Assembly (NCBI RefSeq): GCF_016903815.1
Contig: NZ_CP069973.1
Length of the DNA stretch: 64,000 nucleotides
Source: Escherichia coli
GTDB lineage: Bacteria > Pseudomonadota > Gammaproteobacteria > Enterobacterales > Enterobacteriaceae
Strand: one strand, 5' to 3'
Below, one piece after another: positions 3,986 through 55,735 of this stretch. The stretch's first letter is position 1. Every line of letters starts with the position of its first letter. The notes below the pieces were generated by a model that was not told the origin of the DNA, did not search any database, and was given only the letters and a program-made list of their open reading frames with translations. The position numbers were made by a program, and so were the translations under genes.

Positions 3986-4741
<756 letters not shown>

Positions 4742-4845
4742 ATCAGCATACTTGTCCTTAGCCTTCTGCAGTGACAGCTGGTAGTACAGCGTGCTTCTGG
4801 CCAGCCCTGCAGCCTTTAACAGATCAGACTGGCAGTGTCCGCACC

Positions 4846-5376
4846 TCAGGCTCCGGATGACTTTCGTTTTTTCTCCAGCTCCTGGCGCTTTTTTTCCAGG
4901 AGATGCTCCTGCATGGCTTTCAGATATGCATTTTCTGCGCGAAGATAACGCAGCTCATTCTTCATCTCTTCCGGCGTCATGTTTGCCTCGTTTTCATGGG
5001 TATCATCAGAACGGGTCATGCATTTCTCCTTCCTGCGCCTGATAAAGGCCTCATTACCAGATTTGCGGTAGCCTTTTATCCAGTTTTTAACCGTGTTGTG
5101 GCTGGGAATGTTAAACCGGGCAGCTACCCGGGGTAGAGACTCAGAATGCCCGAGAGCATAAAGAACCACGCAAAGTTTATCTTCAGGAGAATAGCTACGC
5201 CTGTGTCTGCAATCCAGTGCCCGAGGACCGTGAAGAAGAAAAAGATTAATCCAGTGTGAGAGGCTGGTGTGAGAAAGTTGAAAGAGTTTTGCCGTAGAAA
5301 TGATGCCTGCATGACCAGCCAGGTAATGATTTACAGCGGCAAGTTTTACTTCAAATGAATGTTTCATAAACTGCAC
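4846..5376 (-). CDS. IS3-family transposase orfA (HTH DNA-binding part, leucine-zipper-like C-terminus)
   Basis: ORF inside the IS; 3' end carries A AAA AAC slippery heptamer (about 4868..4875) typical of IS3-family frameshifting. Confidence 0.8.
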   Translation of the reverse strand: MQFMKHSFEVKLAAVNHYLAGHAGIISTAKLFQLSHTSLSHWINLFLLHGPRALDCRHRRSYSPEDKLCVVLYALGHSESLPRVAARFNIPSHNTVKNWIKGYRKSGNEAFIRRRKEKCMTRSDDTHENEANMTPEEMKNELRYLRAENAYLKAMQEHLLEKKRQELEKKRKSSGA

Positions 5377-21222: not shown

Positions 21223-21741
21223 ATGCGTTTTTCTCACCGACTGTTCTTACTGCTGATTCTCCTGCTGACGGGAGCACCAATACTCGCTCAGGAACCTTCT
21301 GACGTTGCGAAAAACGTGCGTATGATGGTTTCCGGTATTGTCAGTTACACCCGCTGGCCTGCGCTATCAGGGCCACCAAAGTTATGTATCTTTTCATCTT
21401 CACGTTTTAGTACCGCCCTACAAGAGAATGCCGCGACATCTTTGCCTTATCTGCCTGTCATCATTCACACTCAACAAGAGGCGATGATTTCAGGCTGCAA
21501 TGGTTTTTATTTTGGCAACGAGTCACCGACATTCCAGATGGAATTAACCGAACAATATCCGTCAAGGGCGTTATTATTAATTGCCGAACAAAATACCGAG
21601 TGCATTATTGGTAGCGCCTTTTGTCTGATCATCCACAATAATGACGTCAGATTTGCCGTAAACCTGGATGCCTTATCGCGTAGCGGAGTAAAGGTCAACC
21701 CGGATGTCTTAATGCTCGCACGGAAGAAAAATGATGGATAA
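21223..21741 (+). CDS. yfiR: periplasmic regulator of diguanylate cyclase YfiN
   Basis: 172-aa product with signal peptide; yfiR-yfiN-yfiB operon layout. Confidence 0.85.
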
Positions 21742-22957
21742 CGATAATTCTCTTAATAAGCGCCCCACGTTTAAAAGAGCATTACGCAACATCAGTATGA
21801 CCAGCATATTTATCACTATGATGCTGATCTGGTTGCTGCTTTCCGTGACCTCGGTGCTGACCCTGAAACAGTACGCGCAAAAAAACCTGGCACTGACAGC
21901 AGCAACAATGACTTACAGTCTGGAAGCAGCGGTCGTTTTTGCCGATGGCTCTGCAGCAACTGAAACACTGGCAGCGCTGGGGCAGCAAGGCCAATTTTCA
22001 ACTGCAGAAGTGCGTGATAAGCAGCAAAATATTCTGGCATCCTGGCATTACACCCGTAAGGATCCAGGCGATACTTTCAGTAATTTCATAAGCCACTGGC
22101 TCTTCCCTGCCCCCATCGTTCAGCCGATTCGTCACAATGGTGAAACCATTGGCGAAGTTCGCTTAACCGCTCGCGACAGTTCAATCAGCCATTTCATCTG
22201 GTTTTCGCTCGCTGTCCTGACCGCCTGCATTCTGCTGGCATCAGGCATCGCAATTACCCTCACCCGCCATTTGCACAAGGGTCTGGTTGAAGCGTTAAAA
22301 AACATCACCGATGTCGTACATGATGTGCGTTCCAACCGCAATTTTTCCCGACGAGTTTCGGAAGAACGTATCGCAGAGTTTCACCGCTTCGCTCTCGACT
22401 TCAACAGTCTGCTGGATGAAATGGAAGAGTGGCAGCTTCGTTTACAGGCCAAAAATGCGCAGCTTCTACGTACCGCACTACATGACCCATTAACCGGGCT
22501 GGCTAACCGCGCAGCGTTTCGTAGCGGTATCAACACGTTGATGAACAGTTCCGATGCCCGAAAAACGTCGGCGTTACTATTTCTTGATGGCGATAATTTC
22601 AAATATATCAATGATACCTGGGGTCATGCGACGGGCGATAGAGTCTTGATTGAAATCGCAAAACGGTTAGCTGAATTTGGCGGGCTGCAACATAAAGCAT
22701 ACCGCCTGGGCGGCGATGAATTCGCGATGGTGCTCTATGATGTACAGTCGGAATCTGAAGTGCAGCAGATATGCTCAGCACTGACACAAATCTTTAATCG
22801 CCCGTTTGATCTTCATAATGGCCATCAGACCACCATGACATTAAGCATTGGTTACGCAATGACCATTGCGCACGCTTCTGCGGAAAAATTACAAGAGCTG
22901 GCCGATCACAATATGTATCAGGCCAAACACCAGCGTGCCGAAAAGCTGGTGAGATAA
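21731..22957 (+). CDS. dgcN: diguanylate cyclase (membrane, HAMP + GGDEF)
   Basis: 408-aa product with TM segments and GGDEF-type motif ([10 protein letters not shown]). Confidence 0.85.
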
Positions 22958-22972
22958 CAAGGATATATCGAT

Positions 22973-23455
22973 ATGATAAAGCACCTGGTAGCACCCCTGA
23001 TTTTCACCTCGCTAGTACTGACTGGCTGCCAGTCCCCTCAGGGAAAGTTTACTCCTGAGCAAGTCGTCGCTATGCAATCTTATGGATTTACTGAATCCGC
23101 CGGCGACTGGTCGCTGGGCTTATCAGATGCCATTCTGTTCGCAAAAAATGACTACAAATTGCTCCCGGAAAGCCAGCAACAGATCCAAACCATGGCAGCC
23201 AAATTGGCCTCGACAGGGCTAACACATGCCCGTATGGATGGACACACCGATAACTATGGTGAAGACAGTTACAACGAAGGCTTATCATTGAAACGGGCGA
23301 ATGTCGTGGCCGATGCATGGGCTATGGGTGGAAAAATTCCACGCAGCAATCTCACCACACAGGGTTTAGGAAAAAAATATCCCATAGCCAGTAACAAGAC
23401 CGCCCAGGGCCGCGCCGAGAACCGCCGCGTCGCAGTGGTGATTACAACCCCTTAA
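22973..23455 (+). CDS. yfiB: OmpA-family outer membrane lipoprotein YfiB
   Basis: 160-aa product, lipobox LTGC, OmpA-like C-terminal domain. Confidence 0.85.
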   Translation: MIKHLVAPLIFTSLVLTGCQSPQGKFTPEQVVAMQSYGFTESAGDWSLGLSDAILFAKNDYKLLPESQQQIQTMAAKLASTGLTHARMDGHTDNYGEDSYNEGLSLKRANVVADAWAMGGKIPRSNLTTQGLGKKYPIASNKTAQGRAENRRVAVVITTP

Positions 23456-23472
23456 AACACGAGCAAACAGAC

Positions 23473-23501
23473 AAAAAAAGGGCCAGCCAATTGGCCAGCC
23501 C
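23473..23501 (-). terminator. orphaned native terminator of the rplS operon, separated from rplS by the prophage
   Basis: Minus strand GGGCTGGCC-AATT-GGCTGGCCC (9-bp stem with 2 G-U pairs) followed by T7; lies immediately bacterial-side of attL. Confidence 0.6.
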
Positions 23502-23533
23502 TTCTTAACAGGATGTCGCTTAAGCGAAATCTT

Positions 23534-23546
23534 AGTTAAGACGCTC
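23534..23546. repeat. attL core (AGTTAAGACGCTC)
   Basis: Identical 13-mer to attR; reverse complement encodes E-R-L-N-stop, a displaced copy of the rplS 3' end. Confidence 0.7.
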
Positions 23547-23627
23547 CTATTAACACCCCGCAACAAACAAACGCTTACCATATAAAACAATTAGTTAAAG
23601 TAATTTTTAATGCAATGAATTGCAGTG

Positions 23628-24677
23628 TTATGCAACCTCTGCCGCCATATTGTCGCCAACATACAGCGATAACGGATTAAGGGTTACAGCTTGTTCAAGG
23701 TGGTCAGGAGCAAAGTGTGCATACTTCATTGTTTCTCGAATATTGGCATGCCCGAGAATTTTCTGCAGTACCAGTATATTCCCGCCGTTCATCATAAAAT
23801 GCGCACCAAAAGTATGACGCAAAACGTGCGTCTTCTGCCCTTCCGTCAATTCAATATTCGTTAGTTTGAGCATCTTCTTAAACTCCTGATAGCAGGGTTT
23901 AAACATTCTGCCTTGACGTACGGACAACTCGTCGTACAGCCATTTAGGAATAGGAACTGTGCGATTCTTCTTACCTTTGGTTTTGGTGAACGTCAGTTTA
24001 TATGGAGAAAGTTGAGGGCGGGTCAATCTCTCCGCTTCCCCCCATCGAGCGCCGGTTGCAAGGCACACCTTAACAATCATGGTGAGGTCTTCTTTGCCGT
24101 ATTGCTCGCAGGCTCGAAACAGCTCCGGGAGCTGAGACAAAGTTAGCCAGGACATTTCTTTCTCAGCCTCTTTGAATACTCGGATCCCATCAAGTGGATT
24201 GGGTAGGCTCCACTCCCCTAACCGGCGGAGCTCATTAAACACTGCTTCTAGGTATTGTTGTTCGCGATTGACGGTTATAGGTTTGGCGATCCATTTCGAG
24301 GGGTCTTTATGATAACCGTTGTCTATTTCACCACGTAATCGACGGTCACGATAATGAGCCCAGTCTTTCGCGGTAAGGCGAGATGCAATCGGGTCACCAA
24401 GCCCATTACATACGATTTGAAGCTTTGCTAACCTCGACTTACTGGCGACTAACGCTTGACCGTGCAAATTGTGCCAAAGCTGAATAATCTCGCTTAAGCG
24501 TCGGCGGTCTTCTTTCTTGCCAAGCCACGGCTTATCTTCACTCTCGCTTTTGGTAAATGCTTCGAATGCCTCGGCCTCACCTTTGGTATTGAATTGCCGA
24601 CGTATACGCCGCCCTTCTCGACCATTTGGATAGAGCTCGCATAACCATTTGCCATTTTTTTGCTTACTTACAGTCAT
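23628..24677 (-). CDS. int: tyrosine site-specific integrase
   Basis: 349-aa product with R…HxxR…Y catalytic signature (VLRHTFGAHF, MKYAH); adjacent to attL. Confidence 0.9.
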   Translation of the reverse strand: MTVSKQKNGKWLCELYPNGREGRRIRRQFNTKGEAEAFEAFTKSESEDKPWLGKKEDRRRLSEIIQLWHNLHGQALVASKSRLAKLQIVCNGLGDPIASRLTAKDWAHYRDRRLRGEIDNGYHKDPSKWIAKPITVNREQQYLEAVFNELRRLGEWSLPNPLDGIRVFKEAEKEMSWLTLSQLPELFRACEQYGKEDLTMIVKVCLATGARWGEAERLTRPQLSPYKLTFTKTKGKKNRTVPIPKWLYDELSVRQGRMFKPCYQEFKKMLKLTNIELTEGQKTHVLRHTFGAHFMMNGGNILVLQKILGHANIRETMKYAHFAPDHLEQAVTLNPLSLYVGDNMAAEVA

Positions 24678-24699
24678 AATGTCACCGAGGCAACTCTAA

Positions 24700-25038
24700 T
24701 TATTCGCAAAGTGCTGTTGCGGCATCCATTACAGGATCCAAAGGAATTTTTACACCTGCATACTCTGGACTGTCTTTCCAAACAGCATCAATATTGCTCC
24801 CCTCAAGCTTTCCAGACTTTACTCCATCAATAGCAAAACCATTTAATGGGTATCGGTCATCAGTTGCTTTGTCGTATACAAAGGCATACTTACCGTTAAC
24901 GCAAGACACCGTAGCTTTTTCAAAAGTTAACGGCCAATCCTCACCAAACTTAGCGCCATCTAAATCCTGTGTTTTTTCAGCGGCTAAGGAGCCAAAAGAA
25001 AAGGTAAGAAGCATAGCTAAAAAGAGTTTACGTTTCAT
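24700..25038 (-). CDS. small secreted/periplasmic protein of unknown function (moron between cI and int)
   Basis: Start chosen at MKRKLFLAMLLTFSFGSLAA (cleavable signal peptide); two Cys residues; no recognised domain. Confidence 0.55.
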   Translation of the reverse strand: MKRKLFLAMLLTFSFGSLAAEKTQDLDGAKFGEDWPLTFEKATVSCVNGKYAFVYDKATDDRYPLNGFAIDGVKSGKLEGSNIDAVWKDSPEYAGVKIPLDPVMDAATALCE

Positions 25039-25046
25039 AATTTCCC

Positions 25047-25907
25047 TTATACGTGTTTTTCCAATGTGAAAACTACAACCCCGGCAGGCGTAATGTCGGT
25101 AATGTTGCATTCAAACTCAGCAGACTTATTTGACAACCTGACTTTTCCACCAGGTAAACGAATTACATCAAAAACATCAAGAGCGCCGTCGATATCAATT
25201 AACCAGCGACCATTACTTATATTCGAAGCAGAACAGTCGACAAGCCAAGAGGCAGCTACACCGTCAACAAAAATCAATTCCCCTGAGTTAGAAGGAATCA
25301 TTGAGGGGTCAGGATGCCACGTTCCTGCATCCTTAAGCTCACCAGATTCAAGACGAGATTTTTTAATAGAAAAACCAGATGTGACATCTTCCCTGTTAGC
25401 TCGCATTTGCCCCTTGCCTGTTGCTAACCATTCCAGTGACGTATCGGTATCAAGAGCGCATGTAACAACAACATCACCAGGGAAAAAATCTCGCCTTACC
25501 CATGTGCTAATTGTGCCAGAGGAAATGCCGAGCAAATCACCGAGCTCCTTTTGCATGGTAAAGCCATACGCATCAAGAATCCTACGCAAAACGGTTTTAC
25601 CACCATTCGTCATAATCTCGTCATAAAGCTCTTTGCCTTTTAACTTGCAACTGGCTCGCTCGTGATTTGCATTTGCAAGCTCTCCATTTACAAGCCAATT
25701 GATATCAGCTCCCGTGTCAAGACAACACCTAACTATGACATTGCCAGGTATTGCATCACGCTGAACCCAGCCGCTAACGCTGTGTTTAGCGATACCTAGC
25801 AGGTCAGCCAAATCCTTTTGCATCTTGACCCCATAGGCTGACATTAAGCGTTCCAATACGCCGTTCGTTGCACTAACACGCCACTGAACATCAAGCTCAG
25901 AACTCAT
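25047..25907 (-). CDS. CI-like immunity repressor with tandem duplicated N-terminal HTH domains
   Basis: Two homologous segments (…RLMSAYGVKMQKDLADLLGIAKHSVSGWVQRDAIPGNVIVRCCLDTGADINWLVNGE and …RILDAYGFTMQKELGDLLGISSGTISTWVRRDFFPGDVVVTCALDTDTSLEWLATGKG) resembling the 186/P2 CI DNA-binding domain, plus a C-terminal domain; divergent from the early operon. Confidence 0.75.
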   Translation of the reverse strand: MSSELDVQWRVSATNGVLERLMSAYGVKMQKDLADLLGIAKHSVSGWVQRDAIPGNVIVRCCLDTGADINWLVNGELANANHERASCKLKGKELYDEIMTNGGKTVLRRILDAYGFTMQKELGDLLGISSGTISTWVRRDFFPGDVVVTCALDTDTSLEWLATGKGQMRANREDVTSGFSIKKSRLESGELKDAGTWHPDPSMIPSNSGELIFVDGVAASWLVDCSASNISNGRWLIDIDGALDVFDVIRLPGGKVRLSNKSAEFECNITDITPAGVVVFTLEKHV

Positions 25908-25936
25908 AAAACCCCCTACAGATAATTTTATGGGTG

Positions 25937-25965
25937 TTTACAGAAAACTTTTTACGATCTATAGT
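25937..25965 (+). promoter_or_regulatory. candidate early lytic promoter (pR-like)
   Basis: -35 TTTACA, 17-nt spacer, -10 TATAGT in the cI/apl divergent intergenic region. Confidence 0.45.
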
Positions 25966-26028
25966 GGCATTCATCGACCAAGATGCACACCACTGCACTA
26001 CATTTCAAACAACAGGAGATAATGCGAT

Positions 26029-26400
26029 ATGTCAGATGCAAAATCAATCTCGACGCACGACTCGCAAAACTCACAAAATCAAACTGTGCTGCTAAATCCA
26101 ACACAGTTTGATGCCATCGTTACCGCCATGCTGCCAGCTCTACAGACAATGATTCGCTCCGCTATGTCAGACACGATGACTGTGAAAGACTTCGCCGCTA
26201 CTCGCGGTGTTAGCGAGCGTCTGGTCTGGCAATGGCTCGATGAGGGAGTCCTTCTCAAAGCTCCGACCAAAGACTTTTCCAACAAAGAGGAAGCTGCTAA
26301 ACGAAGCCGAACCCTCGTAAACGTAAAAGCATGGCGCGATAAGCTGACTCAACAAGCGATTGATTGTCGCTACATCGACCAGCGCACCGCTCTTAACTGA
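26029..26400 (+). CDS. Apl/Cox-like excisionase-regulator (HTH)
   Basis: First gene of early operon, AGGAG SD; HTH-like segment VKDFAATRGVSERLVWQWL; role assigned by position. Confidence 0.5.
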   Translation: MSDAKSISTHDSQNSQNQTVLLNPTQFDAIVTAMLPALQTMIRSAMSDTMTVKDFAATRGVSERLVWQWLDEGVLLKAPTKDFSNKEEAAKRSRTLVNVKAWRDKLTQQAIDCRYIDQRTALN

Positions 26401-26432
26401 ATTTGATTATGCAAGTTAGAGGGAATTTAACC

Positions 26433-26942
26433 ATGTTTGATTTTCAGGTTTCCAAACATCCCCACTATGACGAAGCATGCCGCATTTTCGCACAGCGTCA
26501 CAACATGGCGAAGCTGGCCGAGCGTGCAGGTATGAACGTTCAAACGTTACGTAACAAGCTCAACCCGGAACAGCCTCACCAGTTCACGCCGTCTGAATTG
26601 TGGCTGCTGACTGACCTGACCGAAGACTCAACCCTCATTGATGGTTTTTTAGCGCAGATTCACTGCCTACCATGCGTGCCGGTTAATGAGTTGGCTAAAG
26701 ACAAATTGCAGTCTTATGTCATGCGCGCAATGCGTGAACTCGGCGAACTGGCGAGCGGCGCGGTATCTGATGAACGTCTGACCATTGCCCGTAAGCACAA
26801 CATGATTGAAAGCGTTAACTCCGGCATTCGCATGTTGTCATTGTCGGCTCTGGCGCTGCATGCACGTCTGCAGACTAATCCAGCTATGTCGAGCGTGGTC
26901 GATACCATGAGCGGTATTGGCGCATCGTTTGGTCTGATTTGA
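26433..26942 (+). CDS. cII: CII-like lysogeny establishment regulator (phage 186 type)
   Basis: 169-aa product starting MFDFQVSKHPHYDEACR, recognised as 186 CII-like. Confidence 0.8.
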   Translation: MFDFQVSKHPHYDEACRIFAQRHNMAKLAERAGMNVQTLRNKLNPEQPHQFTPSELWLLTDLTEDSTLIDGFLAQIHCLPCVPVNELAKDKLQSYVMRAMRELGELASGAVSDERLTIARKHNMIESVNSGIRMLSLSALALHARLQTNPAMSSVVDTMSGIGASFGLI

Positions 26943-31205: not shown

Positions 31206-32147
31206 TTAATTTATTTTTAATGAATGGTAATCTCGTGAGTTGACCGAAGATTTGAGATAACTGCAATCATTAACCGACAGTATTGCCGCTAATAGGCGAC
31301 ATACCAGTGCCTGCATTTGCAGCAATATATCGTTACCATATTGACTGTTGTTAACACTTGAGAAACCAAGCGGTTGACCAAAAAAAATAGCCTCATGAAA
31401 ATTATCATTGCGGATGCCAGAAATGTTTTTTTTACCTGACACCCATGTGGGGATTGATAACCCATAAATTTTGCACATCCACTTTAATCGCTTGTAATGA
31501 TTTGGCGGTTTTTTATCAGGAGCCTTGTCATGCTCAGCCCACGACAAAGCAAAGCACCCATCAAGTGCCATGTAAAGGTACTGGAATTTTTCAAAAGAAA
31601 GGTATTGTGGGTTTTGAGATAAGAATAGTGCATGCACCACTGCCGCAATTCTTTTGGGGGAGTGCGCATCCTTATGTTTGCCATTTATATAATTAAGAGC
31701 CAGTTCTATGACTTCTTTTTCAGAGCATCCAACGAGAATAAAGTCGGTTAACTTAGTGGGCTTGATAGTGGTTGCATCTAAAAAACCAGCGTCAGTGGTT
31801 GTCAATCTTATTCCCTTGAAAAAAGAAAGGCACCACACAATAAAGTTGAGAGTTTCTAACGAGGATGTATTTTTTAATTTTAGTGTGTGCGTTTTGGGCA
31901 TACTGAATACTCGGTGACTATAAGGCATTGTGGATATGCCACCATTAAGGTTATATACATCTTGGTTTCCAGGGTATATCCAACCTTTCACAACGTTTTT
32001 ATCATTATTAACACGCTCCACTTTCTCATTGAGACCAGGTAAAGTAAGCAAAGAAAATTGTTCAGTCTCAATGTTAACTTCTACTGGATAGTATCCAAAC
32101 TCCGACATAATCTCATTGGGTTGCTGTTCGTCAACTTCACCTTGCAT
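31206..32147 (-). CDS. accessory protein (313 aa) with Rx4H motif; candidate HEPN-like abortive-infection protein
   Basis: A+T-rich ORF in the region between replication gene A and cos; motif GIRNDNFHEA (R-x4-H); no other recognised domain. Confidence 0.65.
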   Translation of the reverse strand: MQGEVDEQQPNEIMSEFGYYPVEVNIETEQFSLLTLPGLNEKVERVNNDKNVVKGWIYPGNQDVYNLNGGISTMPYSHRVFSMPKTHTLKLKNTSSLETLNFIVWCLSFFKGIRLTTTDAGFLDATTIKPTKLTDFILVGCSEKEVIELALNYINGKHKDAHSPKRIAAVVHALFLSQNPQYLSFEKFQYLYMALDGCFALSWAEHDKAPDKKPPNHYKRLKWMCKIYGLSIPTWVSGKKNISGIRNDNFHEAIFFGQPLGFSSVNNSQYGNDILLQMQALVCRLLAAILSVNDCSYLKSSVNSRDYHSLKIN

Positions 32148-32622: not shown

Positions 32623-33627
32623 CTAATTTACATGTATGTAGAGTTCACCGTCGCCAGACCAATCGGGACACTCTAAAACAAGCCCAAACTGCTTGAATAT
32701 TTCATCAATGATTATTGTTATCTCCCGAAAATCACCAAAACCTGTAATGTGCTGGTCATTAAACTTCCCATAAAGATTCTGAAAAGCAATGCCTAATTCT
32801 GATAATTGATATCTTATCTTTGAGTTGGATAGTGTAAGGGATAGCTTTGGATCGTATTCTTTAATATTGATGTTTAGAGAATGGACATAACCCATCGCAT
32901 AAGCATAAGAGTTGATGATTAGCCTGATACGTTTTTTTACTTCGAGATACATGTCATTCAGAGAAATATTACCGTACTTATAACCCCAGATGAGTTTTTC
33001 AATCTCGTCAGATACTTCATTTACAACAGTGTCAAGATTCTCTAAAAATAAATCGATAGTTTCTTGAGGGGCAGACCCCGAAGACATGTAATTAGCGAGA
33101 TATTCAGACCATGCACGCGTGGCTGAGATAAGAAGCGCGCTACCATACTCGTTGACTGTAAAGTTTTGGGCTAAGCATGTTAGTAAGTTTTTTTCATGTA
33201 CGTGCACTAATTCATGGTGAATGCGATGGATGACTGCGAGGTATCCTTCTTCTTTCAGTTTTAAGAAGCTACCATCATTGAAAAGCTCAACAAAAAAATC
33301 AATCGATAGCACAAGGGTATATTCTTCACATAGCCCATCATTGCCAATTTTTGTTACTAACTGCCCGACGGCTGCGCCCTGTTTGCTATTGGTAAATGAA
33401 CTAGGGGATTTGTGTTGGTAAGAGGATGTTACCTTTTGAAGAGCTTCACTGAAGTTATAGGAAACAATCACGCATTTTAATTTGGAGATATCAAGATTGA
33501 GATTTTTTGTTAAAGCTCGGATAGCTTCTAGTGTGAAATTACCGATATTATTTGCTTCTTGCTCAGTAGCGAAACCTTCGAGGGTTATTTTAAAATCAGT
33601 TTCCAAAATATTAATCTCCGCGCCCAT
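32623..33627 (-). CDS. accessory protein (334 aa) with HExxH motif; candidate zincin-like metallopeptidase
   Basis: A+T-rich ORF between cos and portal gene Q; motif HRIHHELVHVHE with Glu about 23 residues downstream. Confidence 0.65.
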   Translation of the reverse strand: MGAEINILETDFKITLEGFATEQEANNIGNFTLEAIRALTKNLNLDISKLKCVIVSYNFSEALQKVTSSYQHKSPSSFTNSKQGAAVGQLVTKIGNDGLCEEYTLVLSIDFFVELFNDGSFLKLKEEGYLAVIHRIHHELVHVHEKNLLTCLAQNFTVNEYGSALLISATRAWSEYLANYMSSGSAPQETIDLFLENLDTVVNEVSDEIEKLIWGYKYGNISLNDMYLEVKKRIRLIINSYAYAMGYVHSLNINIKEYDPKLSLTLSNSKIRYQLSELGIAFQNLYGKFNDQHITGFGDFREITIIIDEIFKQFGLVLECPDWSGDGELYIHVN

Positions 33628-42519: not shown

Positions 42520-42563
42520 AGGTGGGCGTGCCCACTGAGTTGGGTTCGATTCCCTAACCTCGT
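42520..42563 (+). other. tRNA 3'-end-like fragment (T-arm-like GGGTTCGATTCCC), not a complete tRNA
   Basis: T-loop consensus TTCGATT with flanking G/C stem; upstream part cannot be folded into a cloverleaf. Confidence 0.3.
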
Positions 42564-43390
42564 ATTATTCCTCTCGATATTTTTATTGCTGGGTTTTCCT
42601 TTCTTATTTCATTTTTAATTTGCTCATCACAAATTAAATAATCTATGTTTTTTGCTTTAACAAGTTCTTTAACGCTAATGTTAATTGAATTTAATAGATT
42701 TGCATTCCGCATGTTAGCCCCTTCATAAGTAACGGATTTAAAATCACATCCTTTTAATATGCAGCTTTTCATTTCGCTATCTGTAAAATACCCCCCTTCA
42801 AAACTGCAGTTTTCGAAAGTGACATTTTGAAAACATGTATTAAATGCCTTAATATTTCTTAGCTTGCAGTTTTTGAATTTAACACTCTTAACTCTATTGC
42901 CTGTAATATTTAGAGCTTGAATTGTGCAATTATCGAAAGAACAATCTCTAATGTATGATTCGCTCATATTCAAGCCGGTTAAGTCAGCGTCTTTAAAATG
43001 TAAATATTTGATAGTGGACATTTTATCAAGTTCAATCCTTGGAACTTGAATGTTATATATTCCTTTAGCATTTAACTGACGTATGATTTTTATCTTCATA
43101 ATATTCAGTTCTGCAGAAGAATGCTTTGCCAGATTTTCAAGATCTTCAATTAGTTCGTGAATAGCATCTTTATTTTGCCTTTTATTTTCAAAATAGTAAA
43201 GAATCACACCCAAAACAAGAAAGTCTAAAATTGAAGAATTTGCATTAACAAGAAAATTCTCCATGAATTTTGAGTTGTAGTTATCATTATAAACAGACAA
43301 CCCTACTATAAGCCCGGAGTATAAAAAAAAGATACCTATAATATATTTCATATTGCTTATTGTACGCCTAAAAGATGAAGTTCTTTTCAT
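42554..43390 (-). CDS. membrane-anchored pentapeptide-repeat protein (accessory/moron)
   Basis: Very A+T-rich ORF; start chosen at MKRTSSF (AGGT 5 nt upstream); two N-terminal hydrophobic segments, then tandem 5-residue repeats (…DADLTGLNMSESYIRDCSFDNCTIQALNITGN…). Confidence 0.7.
   Translation of the reverse strand: MKRTSSFRRTISNMKYIIGIFFLYSGLIVGLSVYNDNYNSKFMENFLVNANSSILDFLVLGVILYYFENKRQNKDAIHELIEDLENLAKHSSAELNIMKIKIIRQLNAKGIYNIQVPRIELDKMSTIKYLHFKDADLTGLNMSESYIRDCSFDNCTIQALNITGNRVKSVKFKNCKLRNIKAFNTCFQNVTFENCSFEGGYFTDSEMKSCILKGCDFKSVTYEGANMRNANLLNSINISVKELVKAKNIDYLICDEQIKNEIRKENPAIKISRGIIRG

Positions 43391-55384: not shown

Positions 55385-55735
<351 letters not shown>

Follow-up and report, generated by a model that had tools for sequence, protein, structure and literature searches.

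A YebY-like DUF2511 gene between cI and int of a PSP3-type Escherichia coli prophage: a conserved cistron for a predicted periplasmic protein

Introduction

In phage 186, the immunity repressor gene cI (22433–23011) overlaps the integrase gene int (21423–22433) with nothing between them, and the annotation of this phage (U32222) describes a cI-int-orf69 lysogenic operon transcribed from the promoters pL and pE. In phage PSP3, the place between cI and int is taken by gp28 (orf28, NP_958085.1), a protein of 112 aa encoded downstream of a CI repressor with two helix-turn-helix (HTH) domains. Here we describe the orthologue of gp28, referred to below as the yebY-like gene, in a 64,000-nucleotide stretch of Escherichia coli contig NZ_CP069973.1 (RefSeq assembly GCF_016903815.1). 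This whole stretch is called the window, and positions are counted from its first letter. The prophage that it contains is a P2-like phage of the PSP3 type (Eganvirus, 186-like).

The product of the gene is a member of the DUF2511 (YebY) family, in which two proteins are better described. E. coli YebY (b1839, PDB 7N0J) is the third product of the copper-import operon yobA-yebZ-yebY (AZY); it is periplasmic by experiment and has a Cys48–Cys113 disulfide in its crystal structure (PMC8689200). On co-expression it lowers YebZ-dependent copper accumulation, and it contributes to the activity of NDH-2, while its own copper binding is weak and occurs only when the protein is reduced (PMC8689200, PMC11923076). 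MlbQ (PDB 2MVO/6QFP), which serves NAI-107 self-resistance in Microbispora, is a lipoprotein whose linker is long and unstructured, is accompanied by ABC-transporter genes in a lantibiotic cluster, and has been proposed to bind the lantibiotic NAI-107, giving resistance (PMC8689200, PMC11923076). The host family has recently been tied to copper import and to copper-dependent activation of the mar antibiotic-resistance operon and, via MlbQ, to immunity against a peptide antibiotic. The occurrence of family members between a phage CI repressor and a recombinase has also been noted (Hadley et al. 2021; PMC8689200). The gene, its family and its cI-int context are therefore already known. What is new here is that the pairing with the repressor holds throughout the PSP3 group and extends to distant P2-like phages, and that the gene co-evolves with cI under purifying selection.

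The gene and its product

The yebY-like gene is almost certainly the middle cistron of a cI, yebY-like, int operon, and its product a ~10-kDa acidic protein that would be exported by the Sec pathway, lose a 19-residue signal and adopt, in the periplasm, the YebY/MlbQ alpha/beta fold with a C46–C111 disulfide. The coordinates of the gene and of the features around it are collected in Table 1.

The precursor of 112 aa (MKRKLFLAMLLTFSFGSLAAEKTQ...ALCE) is translated from an internal ATG at 25038. The open reading frame (ORF) listing of the window gives the mechanical minus-strand frame as 24700–25110, or 136 aa, but a start at 25110 was rejected, as the longer reading overlaps the 3' end of cI and its frame is closed in many relatives; it is also disfavoured by the signal peptide, which begins only at M25 of the longer version. 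RefSeq/PGAP likewise has a protein of 112 aa here (WP_000823621.1, “DUF2511 domain-containing protein”, E. coli strain 222). An antisense ORF of 91 aa (24794–25069, plus strand) was taken as spurious, because it is the minus-strand frame that has a Pfam match and is under purifying selection. That the yebY-like gene is real and not a chance ORF follows from this Pfam match, from dN/dS ratios of ~0.08–0.25 (pairs with unsaturated dS) and from the existence of 340 homologous clusters at 50% identity. It is, however, ordinary in kind: an annotated gene whose function is still hypothetical.

A first-pass annotation of this DNA, made from the letters alone, had described a 112-aa ORF with two cysteines and a cleavable signal peptide, lying between the repressor gene and int on their strand, and this description was confirmed by the ORF and its translation. 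By sequence heuristics, the n-, h- and c-regions of a signal peptide are all present. The n-region has three positive charges (K2, R3 and K4), the hydrophobic core comprises the 14 residues L5–L18, where the Kyte-Doolittle mean over 11 residues reaches 2.35, and S17-L18-A19 precedes the predicted cut between A19 and A20 as the -3/-1 rule asks; relatives have the canonical A-S-A/A-E-K at this point, and the signal peptide is retained across the phage-clade homologues. The predicted local distance difference test (pLDDT) score of an AlphaFold2 model, computed from an alignment of 101 sequences, is 90.3 overall, with low values (58–64) over residues 1–20 and values of at least 90 elsewhere. The precursor is thus predicted to carry an N-terminal Sec export signal and to yield an extracytoplasmic product.

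The protein has exactly two cysteines, C46 and C111, and none in residues 1–45. Because its signal peptide is free of cysteine, it is not a lipoprotein. Both residues align with the disulfide-forming Cys48 and Cys113 of YebY, the family's conserved pair where strand 2 ends and at the C terminus, and in the 101-sequence family alignment C46 is invariant and C111 is found in at least 90% of the sequences. One cluster representative (P0001), 94% identical to the window protein, ends in ...ALWE instead of ...ALCE, so that the C-terminal disulfide cysteine is replaced by Trp; this may be a sequencing variant or a natural disulfide-less allele.

Table 1. Features of the lysogeny region and attachment sites, by window position
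Feature	Position	Strand	Details
Hairpin with T-run	23475–23506	minus	Strong; 14-bp stem, 7 GC pairs (terminator scan); downstream of int, beyond the att core
att core candidate	23534–23546; repeated 55387–55399	unspecified	AGTTAAGACGCTC; 13-bp direct repeat; right copy overlaps the rplS 3' end
int, P2/186-type tyrosine integrase	23628–24677	minus	349 aa; Pfam Int_N and Phage_integrase, PHROG 1; third cistron
yebY-like gene (DUF2511)	24700–25038	minus	Orthologue of PSP3 gp28/orf28; 112-aa precursor; stop TAA 24700–24702
Mature domain	24703–24981	minus	93 aa, ~10.1 kDa, pI (isoelectric point) ~4.4; contains C46 and C111 (precursor numbering)
Sec signal peptide coding region, predicted	24982–25038	minus	Residues 1–19, MKRKLFLAMLLTFSFGSLA; cut predicted before A20
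Shine-Dalgarno-like TAAGG	25045–25049	minus	Overlaps cI stop TAA (25047–25049); 6–7 nt before the ATG
cI immunity repressor	25047–25907	minus	286 aa; PF07022 twice and PF16452; 98% identical to PSP3 CI; first cistron
pR-like sigma-70 promoter, candidate	25937–25965	plus	TTTACA, 17 nt, TATAGT; 10/12 consensus matches; faces the apl-like gene; analogous to 186 pR
Candidate pL	26020–26048	minus	TTGATT, 17 nt, CATTAT; 8/12 matches; by eye, below scan threshold
Candidate pE, CII-activated establishment promoter	26398–26460	minus	Homology with 186 positions 23400–23462

A probable cistron of the lysogenic operon

Only 8 nt separate the cI stop codon from the yebY-like gene and 22 nt the yebY-like stop codon from int, all three genes being on the minus strand. 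The position of the Shine-Dalgarno-like sequence over the cI stop codon suggests that translation of the yebY-like gene may be coupled to that of cI. On the minus strand between 24678 and 25907, no promoter- or terminator-like site was found by consensus-based scans, which for that reason give only moderate evidence against signals of the gene's own.

The closest guide to transcription is 186. The first-pass annotation stated that P2-type phages normally have the repressor gene next to int, and this holds for 186, where cI abuts and overlaps int; because the overlap there is direct, the ORF of the window fills a position that is empty in this reference genome. The candidate pL has the geometry of 186 pL, with its -10 element just left of the apl-like ATG and its -35 element within the apl-like gene, and from this analogy only we infer that it would be the maintenance promoter for cI, the yebY-like gene and int. 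Further upstream, window positions 26432–26500 are ~91% identical to 186 positions 23434–23502, a segment in which the annotated CII site and a portion of pE lie. At the other end, to judge from the sequence, the lysogenic transcript of the prophage probably stops at the hairpin beyond int, which would be shared with the host gene yfiB as a terminator. Co-expression with the repressor, also proposed in the first pass, is supported by the short gaps, by the lack of any predicted site between the genes and by the annotated pL/pE operon of 186, and we consider it likely that the yebY-like gene shares with cI a transcript from pL in the lysogen and, while lysogeny is being established, one from the CII-activated pE.

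The way in which the three genes diverge also connects the yebY-like gene to the repressor. In phage SW9, int matches the window copy at 99% identity, against 70% for cI and 71% for the DUF2511 protein. The yebY-like gene belongs to the immunity module, since its divergence follows that of cI and not that of int. In two of the loci compared with the window, L022 (SW9) and L002, int is 99% identical and cI and DUF2511 are ~65–71% identical, a difference which points to recombination between the immunity module and the integration module, with its breakpoint inside the DUF2511 gene or directly behind it.

Conserved position and distribution

The window protein shares 97% aa identity with PSP3 gp28, which has the same length, the same place between cI and int and the same two-HTH CI upstream. 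Orthologues are also found in SEN1, Midge, SW9, SI22, RCIP0057 and vB_EcoM-613R3 (PHROG 2950), the 613R3 copy being 100% identical. There is no substantive difference between these orthologues and the window copy, which is the E. coli prophage allele. Their annotations read “DUF2511 domain-containing protein” (PSP3), “putative periplasmic protein” (Midge) or “hypothetical protein”.

Outside this group the gene is rare. A detectable copy was present in 10 of 50,697 phage records (7 phages), all of them PSP3-like, and the gene is absent from 186 and from most Eganvirus records. The phage gene was found in 42 of 5,426 complete E. coli genomes (0.8%); since chromosomal yebY is present in 5,425 of the same genomes, the two genes occur together in E. 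coli lysogens. The phage gene is carried by PSP3-type prophages in E. coli, Salmonella and Klebsiella, and by related prophages in other enterobacteria. Homology to a conserved phage core protein would have spoken against the cargo role proposed in the first pass, but the absence from 186 and these low counts are not those of a core gene. Among 1.84 billion cluster representatives at 50% identity, 340 family clusters were found at E≤1e-3, only one of which was more than 50% identical to the query.

Where the gene occurs, its position is fixed. In the IMG/VR loci retrieved with the phage-clade alignment (61 loci, 46–100% identity), the order cI, DUF2511, int on one strand was found in 61 of 61, and in 4 of them an additional gene for a bPH_3/GRAM+SHOCT protein stands between DUF2511 and int. 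The six nearest clusters with readable context (31–57% identity) are all in lysogeny regions of P2-like phages. In three of them the gene follows a two-HTH CI (P0019, 57%; P0020, 37%; P0024, 32%), in one a one-HTH CI of the 186 type (P0021, 34%) and in one a small HTH repressor (P0023, 36%); the last (P0025, 31%) lies at the cut end of a P2-like contig, with its upstream gene outside the contig. Judged by these sequence contexts, the yebY-like gene is a long-standing cistron of the immunity module, with its position kept down to ~30% identity. Two parts of the first-pass proposal consequently had to be given up: the protein is not an anonymous moron, because a domain search places it in the known YebY/MlbQ (DUF2511) family as the orthologue of PSP3 gp28, and it is not a recently inserted moron cassette, given its old position and the failure to find a promoter or terminator of its own. 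A moron in the strict sense would have both of these signals. The other moron traits, atypical composition and patchy distribution, are present: the gene has a GC content of 41% and a GC content at third codon positions of 31%, against 51.6% for the prophage.

The same data bear on whether the gene does anything at all. It could be a functionless hitch-hiker, or be silent in the lysogen, and in keeping with this it has no known phenotype, it is present in less than one in a hundred complete E. coli genomes, and P0001 has lost its C-terminal cysteine. However, dN/dS lies far under 1, all 61 loci have an intact frame at a fixed position, as do relatives further down to ~30% identity, C46 is invariant and C111 is kept in at least 90% of the family, and the phage clade has retained the signal peptide, so we give this explanation hardly any credence.

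A role in the phage's own cycle was considered as well, either in establishment, with expression from pE together with Int, or in the timing of envelope or lysis events after induction. Such a role would fit the co-transcription with int and cI deduced above, under which pE would express the gene at infection, and also the single position kept in every relative examined. Against it, a periplasmic protein cannot touch the cytoplasmic machinery of integration and repression, and 186, P2 and Klebsiella phage 4LV2017 do without the gene. Moreover, additional or different genes occupy the slot in PSP3-type relatives and in 4LV2017, which is the behavior of cargo and not of core genes. We therefore regard a role in the phage's own cycle as very unlikely.

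The contents of the slot between cI and int differ among these phages: 186 has no gene there, the PSP3 group has DUF2511, alone or accompanied by the bPH/SHOCT gene, and 4LV2017 has a 349-aa gene. The last of these (L090, 3864–4913) encodes an unrelated protein with no Pfam or PADLOC match. Because this slot gene is unrelated, and because 186 has orf69 after int, the junction appears to be a variable cargo site across 186-like phages. An obligatory link between the two-HTH CI and DUF2511 was rejected, since 4LV2017 and its relatives have a CI of two-HTH length and the different 349-aa gene in the slot.

The bPH_3/GRAM+SHOCT protein is a second cargo gene product of the same slot, cytoplasmic and of 166–170 aa, and its gene lies between DUF2511 and int in L007 (5168–5668), L008 (6362–6862), L011 (5475–5975) and L060–L063 (~4350–4862). 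It had no PADLOC match.

Relationship to YebY and MlbQ

The assignment to the family rests on several concordant results. The protein matches Pfam PF10709 (DUF2511/YebY) with 63.7 bits against a gathering cut-off of 21 (E=2.1e-17, profile positions 5–87 of 87) and PHROG 2950 (“unknown function”) end to end, over residues 1–112 of 112, and a phmmer search of PDB sequences retrieved E. coli YebY (7N0J, E=3.7e-7); among NCBIfam models none was found for it. The predicted structure has the antiparallel four-stranded sheet packed by helices that is typical of the YebY/MlbQ fold. Membership in DUF2511/YebY is thus supported by the hidden Markov model match, the cysteine pair, the modelled fold and, by heuristics, the export signal.

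The phage protein is nevertheless not a YebY of the AZY operon. Identity to E. coli YebY is 33% over 83 residues, the neighbors are cI and int instead of the copC/copD genes (yobA-yebZ), and similarity does not reach the level of an orthologue. At two positions the phage protein keeps the residues typical of the family, W87 and G67, which are Q and D in E. coli YebY. In a rough neighbor-joining tree, the phage-context proteins fall near the query and K-12 YebY on a separate branch. A recent capture of the host yebY gene was rejected on the basis of the 33% identity and the separate phage clade.

These comparisons bear directly on the possibility that the protein modulates the copper pathway of the host. 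By binding the CopD-type importer YebZ, or YobA, or the route that supplies NDH-2, a protein made constitutively in the lysogen could damp or rewire copper entry and so alter copper load, mar induction and antibiotic tolerance, which would amount to lysogenic conversion. However, the identity to YebY is no higher than that to unrelated family members (27–37%), and the rough tree sets the proteins from phage contexts apart from K-12 YebY. Roughly one half of the family has no link to copC/copD (PMC8689200), YebY in its native, oxidised form hardly binds any copper, and a second copy would be redundant in a lysogen that has its own yebY. Furthermore, where a prophage remnant adjoins an AZY operon (L011/L012), its DUF2511 copy is 32% identical to the YebY of that operon. 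We consider a copper function unlikely, but not so remote as the other alternatives.

The remnant just mentioned (CP134152.1, 1–6000) is a degraded prophage immediately downstream of a chromosomal copC-copD-yebY operon, and contains a truncated integrase, a two-HTH cI, the DUF2511 gene of P0020 and the bPH/SHOCT gene. Local duplication from the AZY operon was rejected here, as the low identity between the two DUF2511 copies makes the arrangement look like a shared integration site.

Of the features that mark MlbQ, neither a lipobox cysteine nor lantibiotic or ABC-transporter genes were found in the protein or its neighborhood. An MlbQ-like immunity, in which periplasmic binding of an antimicrobial peptide or bacteriocin protects the lysogen from competitors, finds a lead, and only a lead, in the bPH_3/GRAM+SHOCT protein that shares the slot in some relatives. 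Bacterial PH-domain proteins of Bacillus (YdbST) have been linked to resistance to antimicrobial compounds. However, the phage protein lacks a lipobox or membrane anchor, there are no ABC-transporter or bacteriocin genes nearby, lantibiotics normally do not reach the enterobacterial periplasm, and no candidate ligand is known; we thus find this kind of immunity improbable.

Proposed function

Genes co-transcribed with a repressor are on in every lysogenic cell, and phages accordingly place traits that alter the host there. Lambda rexAB is an example of accessory genes co-transcribed with a phage repressor, and T4 Spackle, a small periplasmic protein that blocks superinfecting phage, is similar to the yebY-like product in size and compartment. 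The orf69 gene of 186 follows the same logic as the yebY-like gene, being a non-essential gene that rides the lysogenic transcript (186 annotation). No relationship in sequence or fold was found between the phage protein and lambda rexAB, 186 orf69 or Spackle, and the likeness is one of position and logic only.

Since those relatives that have been characterised work outside the cytoplasm and are not catalysts, the mature product would be a small, non-enzymatic periplasmic binder. Translation would start at the Shine-Dalgarno sequence overlapping the cI stop codon, and the protein would be made whenever the repressor is made. It might then sequester or block an incoming component at the periplasmic face of the inner membrane; possible targets are a component of the penetration or DNA-delivery machinery of a superinfecting phage, or a membrane-targeting toxin. 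We tentatively propose, by analogy, that the yebY-like gene may encode a binding protein that is expressed in the lysogen and, through exclusion or immunity, protects its envelope. Envelope protection is favored because it is typical of repressor-linked cargo and because P2-like phages of very different kinds retain the link to the repressor. The roles that the first pass suggested for secreted morons at such positions, lysogenic conversion or surface exclusion, are likewise plausible.

Several points weigh against envelope protection. Strong purifying selection and a large invariant surface (40 of 112 positions are invariant across 62–100% identity) are unlike a fast arms race. Transcription in the lysogen is deduced from gene spacing and from 186. 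Most known exclusion proteins are membrane proteins or lipoproteins, whereas the phage protein is soluble. Searches against the 5,027 defense models of PADLOC-DB v2 returned no family at E≤0.01, and those against the BFVD viral fold library no similar fold at E≤0.001. The longer members of the family had no informative domain fusions, P0051 and P0096 being without a DUF2511 match in Pfam. Finally, no functional data were found in the literature on PSP3 gp28, on phage 613R3 or on periplasmic proteins of P2-like phages.

In a broader form, and again as a tentative suggestion, YebY-like proteins could be an old class of repressor-linked cargo of P2-like phages, found with three repressor architectures and to ~30% identity, that serve either as soluble factors of exclusion or immunity in the periplasm or as constitutive, phage-encoded modulators of copper entry into the host and, through it, of antibiotic tolerance that depends on mar. 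If either is true, the DUF2511 fold would gain a new function, and Enterobacteriaceae a new form of lysogenic conversion. Any function found for the phage protein would be the first phage-related one for the DUF2511 family.

The host prophage and its other genes

The prophage occupies ~23.5–55.4 kb of the window, between yfiB and rplS; 186, by contrast, is found at a tRNA gene. The att core candidate is the longest exact repeat that the flank next to int shares with the far end, and ~0.07 such matches are expected by chance. The DNA at 23400–26500 is 100% identical to that of Escherichia phage vB_EcoM-613R3 and 87–90% identical to that of the Salmonella phages PSP3 and SEN1.

The CI of the window has two tandem Phage_CI_repr HTH domains and one Phage_CI_C domain, while the CI of 186 (192 aa) has one HTH, and the two-HTH form recurs in relatives as proteins of 280–291 aa. 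For PSP3 CI, only a “longer C-terminal domain” has been described (Nilsson et al. 2011, PMC3448106). With its built-in duplication of the HTH, such a CI may read its operators differently from the CI of 186. At the position of Apl/Cox (26029–26400, plus strand), the window encodes a protein of 123 aa with no Pfam family, assigned to PHROG 3554 and with a weak match to the Cox-like PHROG 575; its PSP3 counterpart has been called a singleton that does not resemble other Cox/Apl proteins (Nilsson et al. 2011, PMC3448106).

Further accessory genes were seen elsewhere in the prophage, all on the minus strand. Two hypothetical proteins of 313 and 327 aa, with no Pfam or PADLOC match, are encoded between the DinI-like and portal genes (31209–32147 and 32626–33606). 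A pentapeptide-repeat protein of 278 aa (42557–43390) lies between the virion-morphogenesis and baseplate V genes, and its one PADLOC match, to an RT-associated SLATT model, was weak (E=0.0027).
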